A DNA stretch of 64,000 nt, taken from Octopus vulgaris. Taxonomy: Eukaryota. Where the stretch lies: assembly GCA_951406725.2 (NCBI GenBank), contig OX597836.1, forward strand, positions 33,914,001-33,978,000, given 5' to 3'. Under the pieces are notes generated by a model. It was given only the letters and a program-made list of their open reading frames with translations. It was not told the DNA's origin and made no database searches. Positions 5,575-53,221 of this stretch are shown in pieces; the stretch's first letter is position 1, and each line of letters starts with the position of its first letter. The translations under genes and the position numbers were made by a program.

Positions 5575-5859
5575 AAACCACATAACATAACTAACTAAAG
5601 AAATTGAATAATAGAAGACACGCGTAAAACGAAAAAAAGAAAAAAAAACTGTGAAGGCAACATATAGAAAATGAAGACAGTAAACAATGGAAAACGAAAA
5701 ACGGAAAAACGAAAAACAGAAACTAAAATATAAAAAATAAAAAAGTAAAAGGATAAAAGTGCTATCCTCCTTAGACATTAAATGATAAGGCTGGAAAGAT
5801 ACCAAGTCAGTCAGGAATAGGCGGAATTTTCCAATTCTTCGAAATATATAGTATATATA

Positions 5860-6105
5860 GATGCAGGAGTGTCTGCGTGGTAAGTTGCGTGCTTACCAAC
5901 CACATGGTTCCAGGTTCAGTCCCACTGCATGGCACCTTGGGCAAGTGTCTTCTACTATAACCTCAGGCCAACCAAAGCATTGTGAGTGGATTTAGTAGAC
6001 GGAAACTGAAAGAGACCCGTCGTATATATATATATATATGTATATGTTTGTGTGTCTGTGTTTGACTCCCCCACCTCTCAACGTCGTTTGACAACCGACT
6101 CGGCA
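5860..6105 (+). mobile_element. SINE family A (tRNA head, CORE-like segment), 3'-truncated
   Basis: GCAGGAGTG..GTGGTAAG head, GGTTCAGTCCC B-box-like, GGCACCTTGGGCAAGTG, internal (TA)/(TG) tract. Confidence 0.8.
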
Positions 6106-6149: not shown

Positions 6150-7207
6150 CGAAGGTGAGTCAAAAAGTAATACCATTTTGTTTAGAACAGGTATAATTAC
6201 CAACGCAAGAACATGTATCATACATCAAAATGAAGCTGGTCTTCTGTGGATCACATCCCTACTTCTCAATATAGTTACCGTTTCTCTCAAAAGCAATGTT
6301 CCACTTTCAAATGAGAGCATGCATCCCTGCCCCGTAAAATTCTGTTGACTGTTCTTTGAGCCAATTCTTCGCTACAGTTTTCACTTCCTCGTCACTGAAA
6401 TAATGTTTGCCTCTCAAACCCTCTTTCATGGGGCCGAAGAGATGATTGTTTGAAGGTGCTAAATTTTTCCAGTGACGAGGAAGTGAAAACTATAGTGAAG
6501 AAGTGACTCAAAGAACAGTCAATAGAATTTTACGGAGCAGGATACATGCTCTCATTCGAAGGTGGAACATTACTATTGAGAGAAACGGTGACTATGTTGG
6601 GAAGTAGGACATGCATAAGATCTGGTCATCAAATCTAAGTAGAGACTTCAAACCTGAAATCTTCAAAGCCACAGTCGAACCAATTCTACTATATGGCTCA
6701 GAAACCTGGACGTTATCAAAGAAGCTTGAGAGGCGGTTGGATGGAACCTACACTCGCCTCCTTATGAGAGCTCAAAATCTCTCGTGGAAGCGCCATCCAA
6801 CCAAAATGCAAATATATGGGAAACTACCACCTGTCTCATCTCTTGCGAAAGGTAGAAGAGTCCAGTTTGCTGGACATTGTTGTAGAGCTGAAAACGAGGT
6901 AATTTCTACTCTTCTCCCCTGGAAGCCATCTACTCGCAATACCAGAGGGCGCACACTCTCCTACCCTGATGTAATCTCCAGGGATACAGGCATCCAGCAA
7001 CAGGACCTCCGTAATGCCATGATGGACCGTGAAGTTTGGGCGTAGCATGGTAAATTCCATTGTCTCGACCACGGTCGAACAATGATGATGATGATGGGAA
7101 GTATGGATGTGATCCACAGAGGACCATTTTGATGTATGACACATGTTTCTGTGTTGGTAATTATACGTGCCCTAAACAAAATGGTATTACTTTTTGACTC
7201 ACCCTCG
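6150..7207. mobile_element. Fold-back mariner derivative made of two inverted transposon 3' ends
   Basis: TIRs CGAAGGTGAGTCAAAAAGTAATACCATTTTGTTTAG at both ends, TA flanks. Both arms encode the transposase C-terminus (SDEEVKT..LKEQS.EFY..WNI..ERNG.Y) pointing outward. Confidence 0.85.
6609..7094 (+). mobile_element. 5'-truncated RTE-clade LINE nested in the mariner derivative
   Basis: ORF 6611-7045 has ILLYGSETW, FAGHC.R and AMMDREVW motifs; (GAT)n tail; TSD TGGGAAGTA at 6598-6606 and 7095-7103. Confidence 0.9.
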
Positions 7208-12509: not shown

Positions 12510-12720
12510 TGTATGTTTGTGTGTCTGTGTTTGTTCCCCCTAGCATTGCTTGACAACCGATGTTGGTGTGTTTACGTACCTGGTAACTTAGCGGCTCGGT
12601 AAAAGAGACAGATGGAATAAGTACTAGGCCTGCAAAAAGAATAAGTCCTGGGGGTCGATTTGCTCGACTAAAGGAGGAGGTGCTCCAGCTTGGCCGCAGC
12701 TAAATAACTGAAGCAAAAAT
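12510..12720 (+). mobile_element. SINE family A 3' module
   Basis: GCTTGACAACCGATG..AATAAGTACTAGG..GGTGCTCCAGC.TGGCCGCAG. Confidence 0.8.
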
Positions 12721-12746
12721 AAAGAAGAAAAGAAAGAAAAAAGAAT

Positions 12747-12783
<37 letters not shown>

Positions 12784-12789
12784 CGGTAA

Positions 12790-13078
12790 ACGTCGCCCAT
12801 TTCAAGCCTAGCCAGGCTCATGGACCCGGTTTCCCGGTTTCTGTAGCGTATGTGTTCGCCCCAGCTGGACAGGAAACCAGTCCATCGCAGTTTTACTCAA
12901 GAAACAGGAAGAGAGAGAGTGAGAGAAAGTTGTGGCGAAAGAGAGCAACAGGGGTCGCCACCACCCTCTGCCGGATCCACACGGAGCTTTAAGTGTTTAC
13001 GCTCAATAAACACTCACAAGGGCCGGTTTGGGAATCGAAACGGCGATCCTCCGATCACGAGGCCATTGCGCCTCCACA
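12790..13078 (-). mobile_element. SINE family B with tail type 2
   Basis: Reverse complement of 63660-63933. Confidence 0.85.
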
Positions 13079-13154
13079 CTATATATATATATATATATAT
13101 TTTATATATGTATATATATGTATATATAATGAATATAGAGACTGATATTTCAAT

Positions 13155-13217
13155 CACCTGAAGAATGACTGTAACTCGAATTTTTACGAATTGGACAGCC
13201 ATGAAACGATCGTAGTG
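13155..13217 (+). ncRNA. Minimal type I hammerhead ribozyme in a (TA)n-flanked cassette (~13130-13350)
   Basis: CAC CTGAAGA ATGACTGT..ACAGCCAT GAA ACGATCGT A GTG: intact core, 7/8-bp stem II, palindromic stem III, GUA site. Confidence 0.85.
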
Positions 13218-13614
13218 TTATACTAATTATCTTTTTTTAATAATTTTGATATATATTTAAAATAATATAAATTAATGAATCTTATGTATTGGCTTAAGTT
13301 TTTCATTGTATGATTTGCCTAATAGTGGTTTTATCTCTAATTTAATATAATATATGCATATATATAGATATACATTGATGCATACATACATACATGCATA
13401 CTTGTACCTTGTAATATTTGTACGACATAGCTCAAGAGAGATGGAGTGTGAGAAGTGCTCTGATTAGTTTCATGCATCAAAATACATCGGTTACACGGCA
13501 GGGGAATTCCTGCTGTCCTTGGTGCTGCTGCTGCTGTCTAAAAGTCTACATCAACACATAAATATATATATACATACATGCATACAAATATATATATATA
13601 TATATATTTATATA

Positions 13615-20124: not shown

Positions 20125-20495
20125 AACGTTACCCCAACCGCAGAACGGGGCGCCACTGCATGGTGCCAAAGATTCCAACATCACCATCAAAATACAGGAC
20201 CAGATACTGCAACAGCTTGGGTTTCAGAGGACCACAGCTCTTTAACATCCTCCCTAAATGCCTGAGAGACTTGCATGGTGTGAATGTGGGCTTCTTTAAA
20301 ACTAAACTGGATCTCTTCTTGTCGGGGGTCCCAGATGAACCTACCTCACGACAGGAGACACAGATGCGGGTAGCGGCATCGAAGTCCCTTGTTGATCAAG
20401 TGCCACGTATCAGAGGTGGATTCACATATTAGTGTAGCTCATTCAGCGGTGGTGCCCCAGCTAAAACATTTTTAAGGATTTAAGGATTTAAGGAT
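20125..20495 (+). mobile_element. 5'-truncated CR1-group LINE 3' end
   Basis: ORF 20106-20432 (NSLGFRGPQLFNILPKCLR..FKTKLDLFLSGVPDEP); (TTTAAGGA)n tail; near-identical to 45736-46065. Confidence 0.85.
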
Positions 20496-24372: not shown

Positions 24373-25586
24373 TGAGTAAAATGTAAGCAACGTTCTGAAA
24401 ATATGAAATTCACCACAATATATATTTCAACAATGCGGTAATTTTATTCATTAAAGTACGATACCGTTACAATCAACACGGTTTTTACCAGCGAATTGCA
24501 AGTTTGTTTATTCCGGTAACATAAAAATCTGGAGTACTGGAGCAGATGAACTCTTTGAACACACTTTCAGCATCGGTTTGATTTTTGAACTCCTTCTCTC
24601 GCAGGAAATCATCAAGGTGCTTGAAGAAGTAGTAGTCGGTAGGAGAAAGGTCCGAGGAATAAGCAGGATGGGGAAGAACTTTGTAGCCAACTTCCTTCAA
24701 CTTCTGGAGTGTCATTAGTGAAATGTGTGGTCGGGCATTGTCATGAAAAATGACTAGCCCACTTCTGTCGGCCAGTCTGGGACGGAGGAGTAGCATTTTT
24801 CGTTCATTTTGGCAATTTCATGGAAATATGTTTCTGCAGTAATGGTTTTCCCGGGTTTTAAGAAGTCATAGTGGATGAGTCCCGCAGTACACCACAAAAC
24901 GATCACCATAACCTTCTTATTGAAGAGCTCAGGTTTAGGGAAGGTTTTCGGTGCTTCATTTTGGTGCAACCACCGCGATGAAGGTTTTTTTATTATTGTA
25001 CAGAATCCACTTTTCATCGCAAGTTACAATACAGCCGAGAAATGAATCGGTCTGGTTACTGAGAAGCGATGAGCAAATTTCATATCTGCGCATTGTCTGA
25101 TTTTCATTCAAATCGCTTGGAACCCATTTGTTGAGCTTTTTTGATTTTTTGATCGCATGCAAATGGTTGCCGGTTCTCAAGTGGTTTTACGTGGATCTTT
25201 CTCAATAATTGGCCATCATCGATGAGAGATGAACGCCCACTGCTAAATCGTTTAGACCATTTTCGAGCTGACCACTCACTGGTCATTTCCTCACCAAACA
25301 TTTCGTTTTGTTTTCGCGAGCATCTTCATCTGCTTTAAGTCCTTTTTTCAAGTTGGATAGCAAAATTGCTCGATTATCGCGCTTTGACAGTTCCATTTCT
25401 GATGATTGTAACAATTGTGAAAAAAATACCAATGTTAAAGTCATTCATGCTCTTGGGTTAGTCTATAATTGTATTATCAGACAATTGCAAAACAAAAAAA
25501 ATGTATAAATGAATTTCAAAACCCTGCAAAAATCCGGTACATATTCTTCCCGCTTCAAAACGTTGCTTACTTTTTACTCAACCTGA
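24373..25586 (-). mobile_element. Near full-length decayed mariner transposon
   Basis: TIRs TGAGTAAAA.GTAAGCAACGTT.TGAA at both ends. Frameshifted transposase with WVP..L, IVTCDEKW, HDNARPH and HPAYSSDLSPTDY motifs. Confidence 0.92.
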
Positions 25587-31630: not shown

Positions 31631-32279
31631 CTGGGGAATGCGCTCAAGCACGTACATCCACCAGGAGTAGGGGAATCACCTTCTGTTGGTGATGCCCTGC
31701 TGCTCCTTGCGGATGACACCTTTGCACCACTCAGACGACAACCCTCCAGCCCATGGGTCTTTTTTAGGATAGACGTTGCTGGTGAGGGTTTAACGAGGTC
31801 GGAATGCGAATCCTTCCTCAGCCTCTTCTACTCGCCTTTTACGTCACTCAGAGGAAATGTTGGGTCTGTTCCTTGACATGTAGGTCCCCATATAAGAAAT
31901 ATGTTTTTTAAACTATGAACAATCTTCTCACTTTTTAAGAAACATCGTAGAATATTGAATTTCCCTTAATTAGTATATGTCTCGATGTTATGTTGCGCTG
32001 ACGACTTCAAACGAGGATGAAATAGTCCTATACACGACAACCAACGACTAAAAATTACAAGAACTTTATTTTATTGTTTCGGGGGAGTCATTACGCCAAT
32101 AATAACACTCGCACTGGTTCATCATCACTTCTTTATTGTTAGTCAACTGGCTAAATGGAAAATTGTCTTGGAATTTAAAAATTATGGCGCCCGTCTTTAT
32201 AATAGCTGAAGGTATGGATAAGATGGGCGAGAGGATGGGGCAACGGAATTGTCATCGAAAATGTTTCTAAAACCTTTTA

Positions 32280-32441
32280 GGCGTAGGAGTGGCTGTGTGG
32301 TAAGTAGCTTGCTTACGAACCACATGGTTCCGGGTTCAGTCCCATTGCGTGGCACCTTGGGCAAGTGTCTTCTACTATAGCCTCGGGCCGACCAAAGCAT
32401 TGTGAGTGGATTTGGTAGACGGAAACTGAAAGAAGCTTGTA

Positions 32442-32484
<43 letters not shown>

Positions 32485-32716
32485 GTGTGTGTATATGTTT
32501 CTGTGTCTGTGTTTGTCCCCTCAACATCACTTGACAACCGATGCTGGTGTGTTTACGCCCCCGTAACTTAGCGGTTCGGCAAAAGAGACCGATAGAATAA
32601 GTACTAGGCTTCCAAAGAATAAGTCCTAGGGGTGGATTTGCTCGACGAAAAGCGGTGCTCCAGCATGGCCGCAGTCAAATGACTGAAACAAGTAAGAGAG
32701 TAAAATAGTAAAAGAG
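32280..32716 (+). mobile_element. Full-length SINE family A
   Basis: Best-preserved copy, with all modules and the 3' hairpin CAGTC-AAAT-GACTG. Confidence 0.9.
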
Positions 32717-37009: not shown

Positions 37010-37242
37010 GGATAAACTACCTGCAACAATTTGCTGTAAAAGCAGGTACAAGTTTACCTTACTACCTGCGTTTATTGCAAGTTTTGAAGAGTGCAGTTCG
37101 ATTTTAACAGTTATTTTTTCAAAGCTATAATGGAAGTGACAAAAGAGCGTATTTGGCATATTTTGCTTTATGAGTTCAATGAAGGCAACAAAGCAACGAA
37201 AAGTGTGAGGAATATTAATGCAGTATATTGGGATCGGACAAT
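37010..37242 (+). mobile_element. Mariner 5' fragment
   Basis: MEVTKERIWHILLYEFNEGNKATKSVRNINAVYWD resembles the mariner transposase N-terminal HTH. Confidence 0.75.
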
Positions 37243-37319
37243 TGAACCGCGAGGAATTACTGTATCAGAATAAAATAAGGGTCAGTAATTAAATAAAATT
37301 TTAAAAATCACAGCAAGTA

Positions 37320-44371: not shown

Positions 44372-45077
44372 ATATTTATATGTAAATATATATATATATG
44401 TATGTATATATTTATATGTAAATATATATATATATATATATATATATTTACATAGAAATATATATATATACATAGATATATAGTCATATATATATATATG
44501 CGTGTGTGTGTGTGTGTATATATATATTTATGCGTGTCGTGTGTGTATGTATGTATTGTATATAATGCATATATCTATATGTATATATGTATATATGTAT
44601 ATATGTGTATATATATATATATATATAAACAATATACACACATATTGTTTGTGTTTAATTCAAGGATGTCTAGATAAGCATAGTTATTCATGTCATTCTG
44701 TACATGCACGTATATATGTGTGTATATATGCATATATACATACATGTATACATAATACATACATGATATATATATATATGTCTATATATATATATACATA
44801 GATACATACATATATATATATATATATATATTATATTAAATTCGAGATAAAACCACTATTAGGCAAATCATACAAAGAAAAACTTAAGCCAATACATAAG
44901 ATTAATTAATTTATATTATTTTAAATATATATCAAAATTATTTACTATAAAATTGGATTCAATCCTAAATCTGATTTTTCCCTGTAAGTTTGGATTTATT
45001 CCCTAATATTTTATTATGCATATATATATATATATATGAGTCAAAAATTGTGAAGCATGACTGTCAACACTACTACA

Positions 45078-45122
45078 TGAACCCGAAGATTGCAGAATTC
45101 AATGCATGAAAGTACTAGTTCA
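45078..45122 (+). ncRNA. Minimal type I hammerhead (U4C variant) in a TA-flanked cassette (~45038-45270)
   Basis: TGAAC CCGAAGA T TGCA-GAATTCAA-TGCA T GAA AGTACT A GTTCA: 5-bp stem I, palindromic stem III, CUA site. Confidence 0.7.
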
Positions 45123-45735: not shown

Positions 45736-45740
<5 letters not shown>

Positions 45741-46065
45741 CATCAAAATACAGGTCCAGATACTGCAACAGCTTGGGTTTCAGAGGACCACAGCTCTTTA
45801 ACATCCTCCCTAAATGCCTGAGAGACTTACATGTTGTGGATGTGGGTTTCTTTAAAACTAAACTGGATCTCTTCTTGTTGGGAGTCCCAGATGAACCTAC
45901 CTCACGACAGGAGACACGGATGCGGGCAGCAGCATCGAACTCCCTTGTTGATCAAGTGCCACGTATCAGAGGTGGATTCACAAACTAGTGTAGCTCATTC
46001 AGCGGTGGTGCCCCAGCATGGCCGCGGCCTTCGGGCTAAAACATTTTTAAGGATTTAAGGATTTA
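45736..46065 (+). mobile_element. 5'-truncated CR1-group LINE 3' end inserted in (TA)n
   Basis: ORF2 C-terminus, stop codon, 3' UTR hairpin GGCC-TTCG-GGCT and (TTTAAGGA)n tail. Confidence 0.88.
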
Positions 46066-50381: not shown

Positions 50382-50412
<31 letters not shown>

Positions 50413-50657
50413 GAGTGTATTTTTACTTTGTTAACAATTAACACGGAAAAAAAAAATAAATAGTTACCAGGGCAGCAAAAATCTCACAAGTAAAGGTGTT
50501 GTAACTCCTTGTTTATAAAGGTAGAAACTTCGTGTTTACGTTGAATATTTTGAATAATATGAATATACCATTCTTTTGAATAGTATCAGTGGAATTTTTG
50601 AAACATGTGTCGAAAATAAAAAATATTTGATTACACCTGCGTTAACTCCATTTTTTA

Positions 50658-50756
<99 letters not shown>

Positions 50757-52057: not shown

Positions 52058-52130
<73 letters not shown>

Positions 52131-52329
52131 CAATAGGTGAATGAATTATCCTATGTTTATCGTCAGCATGGAAAATTTGCCTTGTTGCCGAGAGAGGCTC
52201 CCTTTCTTTCCTGATGAGAAGATTGCATCATACACCCTTTATTCCTTTGGAATGAAACCATGTGGTCTTCGAAACATATGTCGAGAGTAAAGGAATTTTG
52301 TTAACATCTTCGTTCGACTCCATTCTTTC

Positions 52330-52363
<34 letters not shown>

Positions 52364-52840: not shown

Positions 52841-52911
52841 ATACGACTCTTTGAGATATTCTACCGAGCGGGAAAAATAAAAAAAAAATTGTTTAATTAA
52901 ATGTCGTTAAA

Positions 52912-53221
52912 TTTGTCCAAGCTTGGTCTCCTAAAAAGTTTGTCCAAGCTTGGTCTCCTAAAAAGTTTGTCCAAGCTTGGTCTCCTAAAAAGTTTGTCCA
53001 AGCTTGGTCTCATACAAAGTTTGTCCAAGCTTGGTCTCCTAAAAAGTTTGTCCAAGCTCGGTCTCCTAAAAAGTTTGTCCAAGCTTGGTCTCCTAAAAAG
53101 TTTGTCCAAGCTTGGTCTCCTAAAAAGTTTGTCCAAGCTTGGTCTCCTAAAAAGTTTGTCCAAGCTTGGTCTCCTAAAAAGGTTGTCCAAGCTTGGTCTC
53201 CTAAAGAGGTTGTCCAAGCTT
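52912..53221. repeat. 27-bp minisatellite, ~11.5 copies
   Basis: Unit TTTGTCCAAGCTTGGTCTCCTAAAAAG; copies are nearly identical with no spacers. Confidence 0.97.

Follow-up and report, generated by a model that had tools for sequence, protein, structure and literature searches.

The window analysed here, 64,000 nt of the Octopus vulgaris genome, contains a short cassette in which a hammerhead-like motif is followed by an AT-rich flank that recurs in the opposite orientation. This locus raises the question of whether the motif is a hammerhead ribozyme belonging to a dispersed element, and if so to which kind of element, or whether a chance fold happens to lie beside low-complexity DNA.

Structure of the hammerhead motif

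An intact hammerhead motif had been proposed at 13155–13217 by the initial annotation, with cleavage after 13214. The motif was found to have full type I hammerhead topology and to comprise the following parts:

13155–13217, + strand: the whole type I hammerhead motif, in which helix I is short, helix II long and helix III palindromic; the cut is predicted at 13214/13215
13155–13157 and 13215–13217, + strand: helix I, three Watson-Crick pairs
13158–13164, + strand: CUGAAGA box
13165–13172 and 13195–13202, + strand: helix II, 7 of 8 pairs, with one A·C mismatch and an A-U closing pair
Between the helix II strands, + strand: loop II, 22 nt, with five further pairs possible
13203–13206, + strand: GAAA box
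13206–13213, + strand: perfect 8-nt self-complementary palindrome, forming an 8-bp intermolecular helix III in the dimer (duplex −10.0 kcal/mol)
Up to the predicted cut after 13214, + strand: GUA triplet, followed by the 3′ strand of helix I

The conserved core (C3 U4 G5 A6 N7 G8 A9, G12 A13 A14 A15.1, U16.1 H17) was canonical throughout. The three helices surround this core, the structure being open at helix I, and helix III comprises 2 bp in the monomer and 8 bp in the dimer. Cleavage is predicted after 13214, in agreement with the initial annotation. The description as intact is limited to the core nucleotides; a search of the window against Rfam gave no hammerhead at gathering score and, of the 29 matches listed with E ≤ 10, none was a hammerhead; the motif exemplifies a ribozyme class that goes undetected by Rfam. 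A loose hammerhead descriptor matched the window twice (at 13158 and 52211) and gave any match in 1 of 200 block-shuffled windows, and a stricter palindromic descriptor matched none of the 200, both descriptors having been composed post hoc with the motif already known.

Ten open codons (MNIETDISIT; 13129–13161, + strand) terminate at a UGA within the ribozyme core. This peptide may resemble the C-terminus of an endonuclease, and the frame is possibly the end of the parent reading frame, or else due to chance. The frame in a second cassette of the window (52129–52333; see below) likewise stops at the core UGA.

Folding as monomer and dimer

In computed folding of the monomer, the hammerhead fold reached −3.3 kcal/mol compared to −6.5 kcal/mol for an unrelated minimum, and the strand folded worse than 191 of 200 shuffles. 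The homodimer minimum of −24.0 kcal/mol contained helix II twice as well as the 8-bp intermolecular helix III, with pair probabilities of 0.6–0.87 for helix II, 0.91–1.0 for helix III and only 0.15 for helix I; the complete double hammerhead reached −21.4 kcal/mol. The energy gain of the dimer was unexceptional, being equally large in 23 of 200 shuffles. By these folds, the motif has the build of a dimer-dependent, probably slow ribozyme. This compares to minimal hammerheads of Penelope-like elements (PLEs), for which single motifs were reported to be uncleaved and dimers to cleave at a low level (PMC4209133). A lone genomic copy of the hammerhead probably does nothing, and a negative cleavage result would probably be obtained with the monomer in vitro.

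A repeated segment with a common 3′ end

The cassette and the repeat that it contains were delimited as follows:

13128–13355, + strand: copy 1 cassette, about 228 nt between TA-rich tracts, read as a putative 5′-truncated PLE 3′ terminal region (pLTR or 3′ UTR)
13239–13355, + strand: segment B, the AT-rich 3′ part common to both copies, ending at the common terminus
44826–44942, − strand: copy 2 of segment B, without ribozyme, its 3′ end abutting a perfect (TA)n run

The antisense recurrence of the 3′ flank about 31 kb away, as first reported, was confirmed and found to be 2–5 nt longer at each end: 13239–13355 is the reverse complement of 44826–44942 at 114 of 117 positions (97.4% identity, three substitutions, E = 3.9e-53), and the gap between the copies is 31,470 nt. 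Pairwise alignment excluded low complexity as the explanation of this match, since its score of 198 bits is far above the maximum of 47.3 obtained in 500 dinucleotide shuffles; segment B has a GC content of 16%, and each of its 16-mers is present at most twice in the window. The divergence of 2.6% between the two copies points to a young family with mappable ends.

The two copies are joined to different sequence, as had also been claimed. At 13239, following a T7 run, the homology breaks off abruptly; upstream of this breakpoint the loci are unrelated to each other. If a 13-nt gap is allowed, 7 of 8 bases of 13219–13226 match 44951–44944 upstream of the breakpoint, which is probably due to chance. 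The two copies share their 3′-terminal base (13355/44826), which lies beside TA-rich sequence, and their 5′ starts differ (n = 2). Thus, a fixed 3′ end with variable 5′ truncation, the criterion used for PLEs, was seen in both copies of segment B. The proposed position beside (TA)n in both copies was correct for copy 2, which abuts a perfect run, but copy 1 abuts an imperfect TA-rich stretch (alternation 0.67) with the nearest perfect (TA)5 located 207 nt away. As background, a (TA)5 run is found no more than 30 nt away from 17% of random positions in the window. Insertion into (TA)n is the trait looked for in PLEs of the Hydra, Neptune and Naiad types.

The intact ribozyme was present only in copy 1, where it is contiguous with segment B without any microsatellite between them, and the ribozyme part of copy 1 is single-copy in the window. 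The 5′ end of copy 2 was considered as a mark of the cleavage site and rejected; because this break lies 24 nt downstream of the predicted cleavage site, it was not set by cleavage. The earlier interpretation, which preferred a dispersed mobile family to a chance fold, remains the best reading of the shared 3′ end and the differing 5′ ends, but since copy 2 lacks the ribozyme, the comparison demonstrates a dispersed 3′ end and not a mobile ribozyme. That the ribozyme travels with the repeat is supported indirectly, by a sister motif at 45050–45120 and by a second hammerhead family with two copies in the window.

No copies outside the window were found by the nucleotide, protein and supplement k-mer searches tried. 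A 21-mer of segment B matched four loci among bacterial and archaeal genomes, none of which extended past the seed, consistent with chance. To detect spurious translations of further copies, antisense frames free of stops were taken from B (in two length ranges) and from the ribozyme; these gave no match in protein searches, which is weak evidence. Five k-mers from the window had no match in the supplement of PMC8557442, in which line breaks could hide a match, and window k-mers had none in the supplements of PMC13282606 and PMC8967140, the text of which is too small for repeat libraries. Likewise, no publication naming the family was found in literature on octopus hammerheads or Penelope twin priming, with subscription journals, Repbase and Dfam outside the scope of the search.

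Segment C and the organization of locus 2

At the second locus, a further segment is joined to the repeat:

44943–45012, no strand assigned: segment C, 70 nt with no other copy in the window; one side meets the 5′ end of copy 2 without a gap, and (TA)n follows on the other side

TA tracts flank B and C together on both sides, not B alone, and the other three cassettes in the window are also flanked on both sides. We infer, with slightly better than even chances, that locus 2 consists of B inverted head-to-head with the element's own further 3′ tail, C. The other reading, with chances slightly below even, is that B is a plainly truncated insertion and C is older neighbouring DNA. Inverted 5′-truncated copies and optional tails are standard features of PLEs, and one family of the Hydra clade has an inverted 5′-truncated copy comparable to locus 2 (PMC8557442). 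Segment C has no second copy in the window, and its 70 nt exceed the 30–40-nt tails described for PLEs.

Two other origins of C were considered and rejected, namely a diverged ribozyme part (175–432 of 500 shuffles) and similarity to the end of the neighbouring segment 45038–45265 (57–212 of 500 shuffles). The + strand of C carries TATAAAA and a splice-donor-like GTAAGT, words that are common in AT-rich DNA; PLE terminal repeats can contain a promoter and an intron.

Other hammerheads in the window

Three additional hammerhead-derived regions were identified, one of them close to copy 2:

45050–45120, + strand: decayed sister hammerhead, at the start of the unique segment 45038–45265, 38 nt beyond C
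52129–52333, + strand: second cassette with a type I hammerhead, unrelated to the first and flanked by perfect (TA)n runs
52206–52287, + strand: motif of the second cassette, with 5 bp in helix I and 11 bp in helix II, G-C as the closing pair, a palindrome in helix III and a GUC site
50410–50663, + strand: decayed paralogue of the second cassette, CUGANGA box lost

The remnant at 45050–45120 contains the same 8-nt helix II 5′ strand and the same CATGAAA as copy 1, together with a different palindrome. Across the core box and helix II strand, 13 of 15 bases match copy 1, which was reached in none of 300 shuffles in a post hoc test; a plain local alignment was non-significant (34 of 500 shuffles), and the DNA following the remnant is unlike B (187 of 500 shuffles). 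The core of the remnant is changed at C3 and A9, and a C3G change was reported to abolish cleavage in the anole ribozyme (PMC11167929). As in copy 1, the remnant has an A-U closing pair and no bulge, which suggests that the A-U pair is a lineage trait and not a private mutation.

The motif of the second cassette folds better than that at 13155–13217, and its homodimer minimum is the double hammerhead. Its paralogue shares the 3′ half and the 3′ terminus beside (TA)n (0 of 500 shuffles), and the palindrome of the paralogue differs by one change with G·U pairing kept. This second family shows continuity from ribozyme to element end in both copies and has a layout like that of the first cassette. 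The distance from hammerhead to 3′ end is 148 nt in the second cassette and 221 nt in the first.

Comparison with known Penelope-like elements

PLE hammerheads have been described as having a short helix I, a long helix II, a palindromic loop III and an AU-rich 3′ flank (PMC4209133). The cassette agrees with the minimal type I hammerheads of PLEs (Cervera and de la Pena, 2014; PMC4209133) in its CUGAAGA and GAAA boxes, 3-bp helix I, 7–8-bp helix II, dimer-suited palindromic helix III and AU-rich 3′ flank. Those hammerheads mostly occur, as here, as single dispersed motifs from truncated elements, of which thousands were reported in many animal genomes (PMC4209133). The cassette differs from them in a 22-nt loop II, in that no linked frame was found, and in the absence of two features with more than 80% consensus among PLE hammerheads, the bulged base after A9 and the G10.1-C11.1 pair (here A10.1-U11.1). 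An A-U closing pair without the bulge is seen in a shrimp PLE row in Fig. S3 of the same paper, representing a minority of the published rows.

According to our hand counts from Craig et al. (2021; PMC8557442), 26 of the 27 Hydra-clade families listed target (TA)n and 11 of 25 hammerheads read CATGAAAC, a frequent junction that is also read in the present cassette. A position 87–210 nt from the 3′ end was counted for 23 of 24 Hydra-clade hammerheads, with the remaining one at 425 nt and one family, given with a 5′ position only, omitted, compared to 221 nt in the present cassette. A hammerhead-bearing octopus PLE has thus already been published, since Hydra-1_Obim of Octopus bimaculoides is among these elements, which have (TA)n targets and a hammerhead about 100–200 nt from a fixed 3′ end (PMC8557442). 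However, the ribozyme sequence of Hydra-1_Obim differs from 13155–13217, and helix III in the clade usually has 3–4 bp with a 1–3-nt loop, compared to the perfect 8-nt palindrome found here. The hallmarks given for the Hydra clade are the reverse transcriptase motifs RWK/DKT, a CxCX5C linker and no CCHH. The putative PLE has Hydra-like features but may also belong to Neptune or Nematis.

Similarity was also seen to the Poseidon PLE of Anolis (Frangieh et al., 2024; PMC11167929), which has an AT-rich target, defined start sites of reverse transcription, ribozyme-spanning insertions derived from uncleaved RNA, and a helix II that begins with AUG; the corresponding AUG at the start of helix II in the octopus motif opens 16 codons only. 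Compared to Poseidon, a second start site is hypothetical in the present case, and the putative tail would measure about 70 nt. In the same work, insertion of the anole PLE was found to use mainly uncleaved RNA as its substrate, and PLE hammerheads, described as protein-assisted, were dispensable for insertion in vitro (PMC11167929).

Origin of the cassette

On the sequence features described above, we consider the cassette to be, probably, a dead 5′-truncated 3′-end fragment of an EN+ Penelope-like retrotransposon that inserts into (TA)n microsatellites. The kind of element, left unnamed in the initial annotation, would most likely be the known terminal-repeat hammerhead of PLEs. The motif and the repeat are real and of an ordinary kind, most likely a truncated PLE tail as is well described in invertebrate genomes. 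A source element elsewhere in the genome would be transcribed as a tandem or partial-tandem RNA, a GIY-YIG endonuclease would nick TA-rich DNA, and the reverse transcriptase would start at a fixed site near the RNA's 3′ end, giving the common terminus at 13355/44826. Synthesis would stop prematurely, so that only about 228 nt were copied at locus 1 and 117 nt at locus 2. The ribozyme may cut as a double hammerhead in which two copies are paired via the palindrome, possibly with the assistance of protein. Because copy 1 spans the cleavage site, its template would have been uncleaved RNA. PLEs preferentially insert beside earlier PLE copies, and the remnant at 45050 near copy 2 fits this tendency.

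No remnant of a telomerase-like PLE reverse transcriptase or GIY-YIG endonuclease was detected by Pfam in 238 of 267 filtered frames, which gave only mariner and spurious matches; the other 29 frames were left out since they were judged to be mostly microsatellite-derived. A missing PLE frame is expected for a truncated end of 228 nt.

The absence of coding sequence attached to the cassette would suit a short non-autonomous hammerhead element of about 230–300 nt, SINE-like or a solo non-LTR retrozyme, that relies on PLE or LINE enzymes acting in trans, perhaps with a circular RNA intermediate, and of which copy 2 would be a truncated or permuted unit. Metazoan non-LTR retrozymes resemble the cassette in being short non-coding units of low GC content with a type I hammerhead (PMC7229834; bioRxiv 10.64898/2026.07.22.740005), the unit size lies inside the retrozyme range, solo monomers are common, and retrozymes appear to be derived from pLTRs. 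However, tandem units define retrozymes, and there is no tandem array at this locus; the two copies are not unit-length, helix I has 3 bp compared to the canonical 6 bp, and helix II has 7 of 8 bp compared to the canonical 4 bp (PMC4209133). In addition, no tRNA gene was detected in the window by ARAGORN, and a short PLE truncation yields an identical picture, so that we regard such an element as unlikely. Still less probable is an independent origin of B, as a small repeat in its own right or through local inverted duplication, with the ribozyme part being a separate fragment that happens to adjoin B where TA-rich DNA at locus 1 attracts insertions. The sharp end of homology at the T7 run, the single-copy state of both C and the ribozyme part, and the lack of a B-like sequence after the sister remnant would be accounted for in this way, but the uninterrupted junction between ribozyme and B, the ribozyme-to-end continuity in both copies of the second family, and the expectation of a 100–200-nt AU-rich stretch after a PLE ribozyme (PMC4209133, PMC8557442) argue against it. 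A chance fold combined with a low-complexity alignment is very improbable: the low GC content of B, the poor folding of the monomer and the missing Rfam match are in its favour, but its alignment part is refuted by the shuffling results, the palindromic motif did not occur in shuffled windows, and a sister remnant and a second hammerhead family lie in the same window.

A more far-reaching form of the preferred PLE reading seems doubtful. It holds that the cassette belongs to a family that targets (TA)n, has been active recently and has yet to be described; its reverse transcriptase would start at either of two sites separated by about 70 nt, double the known tail length, and would leave head-to-head inverted micro-insertions of less than 200 nt (B reversed plus C). 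The coding region of the family may also have been lost, and the family may have spread as solo hammerhead elements without tandem arrays, with RNAs cleaving only by trans pairing. If this is true, then with 3–4 hammerhead-derived fragments in 64 kb a very large natural collection of PLE ribozyme variants may exist in the host, in which the function of PLE hammerheads could be examined. A single cassette matters little alone; a young family could add data if the source element is found.

Genomic setting

PLEs were reported to make up 6.83% of the O. vulgaris genome, in 190 families (PMC13282606). The window has the repeat-rich character of animal DNA and a GC content of 23–43%, is microsatellite-rich and 31% masked, and contains about 15 kb of dispersed repeats; no host gene was detected in its 64 kb. 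Remnants of mariner transposase were found at 24488–25325 (− strand) and 37088–37270 (+ strand) (Transposase_1, HTH_48; Pfam). A 145-codon frame at 6608–7042 (+ strand) has 226 database relatives that are up to 93% identical, and we take it to be the C-terminus of an RTE-type LINE protein. A 280-nt direct repeat (20182–20461 and 45738–46017; 95% identical) contains open frames that are presumably LINE-like. SINE-like repeats, for which ARAGORN found no tRNA, were abundant (e.g., 5847–6021, 12535–13077, and 32278–32690), with up to 17 overlapping matches, and they often end at TA or CA microsatellites. Finally, units of about 27 nt are repeated in tandem at 52909–53208, and this array is open in several frames.
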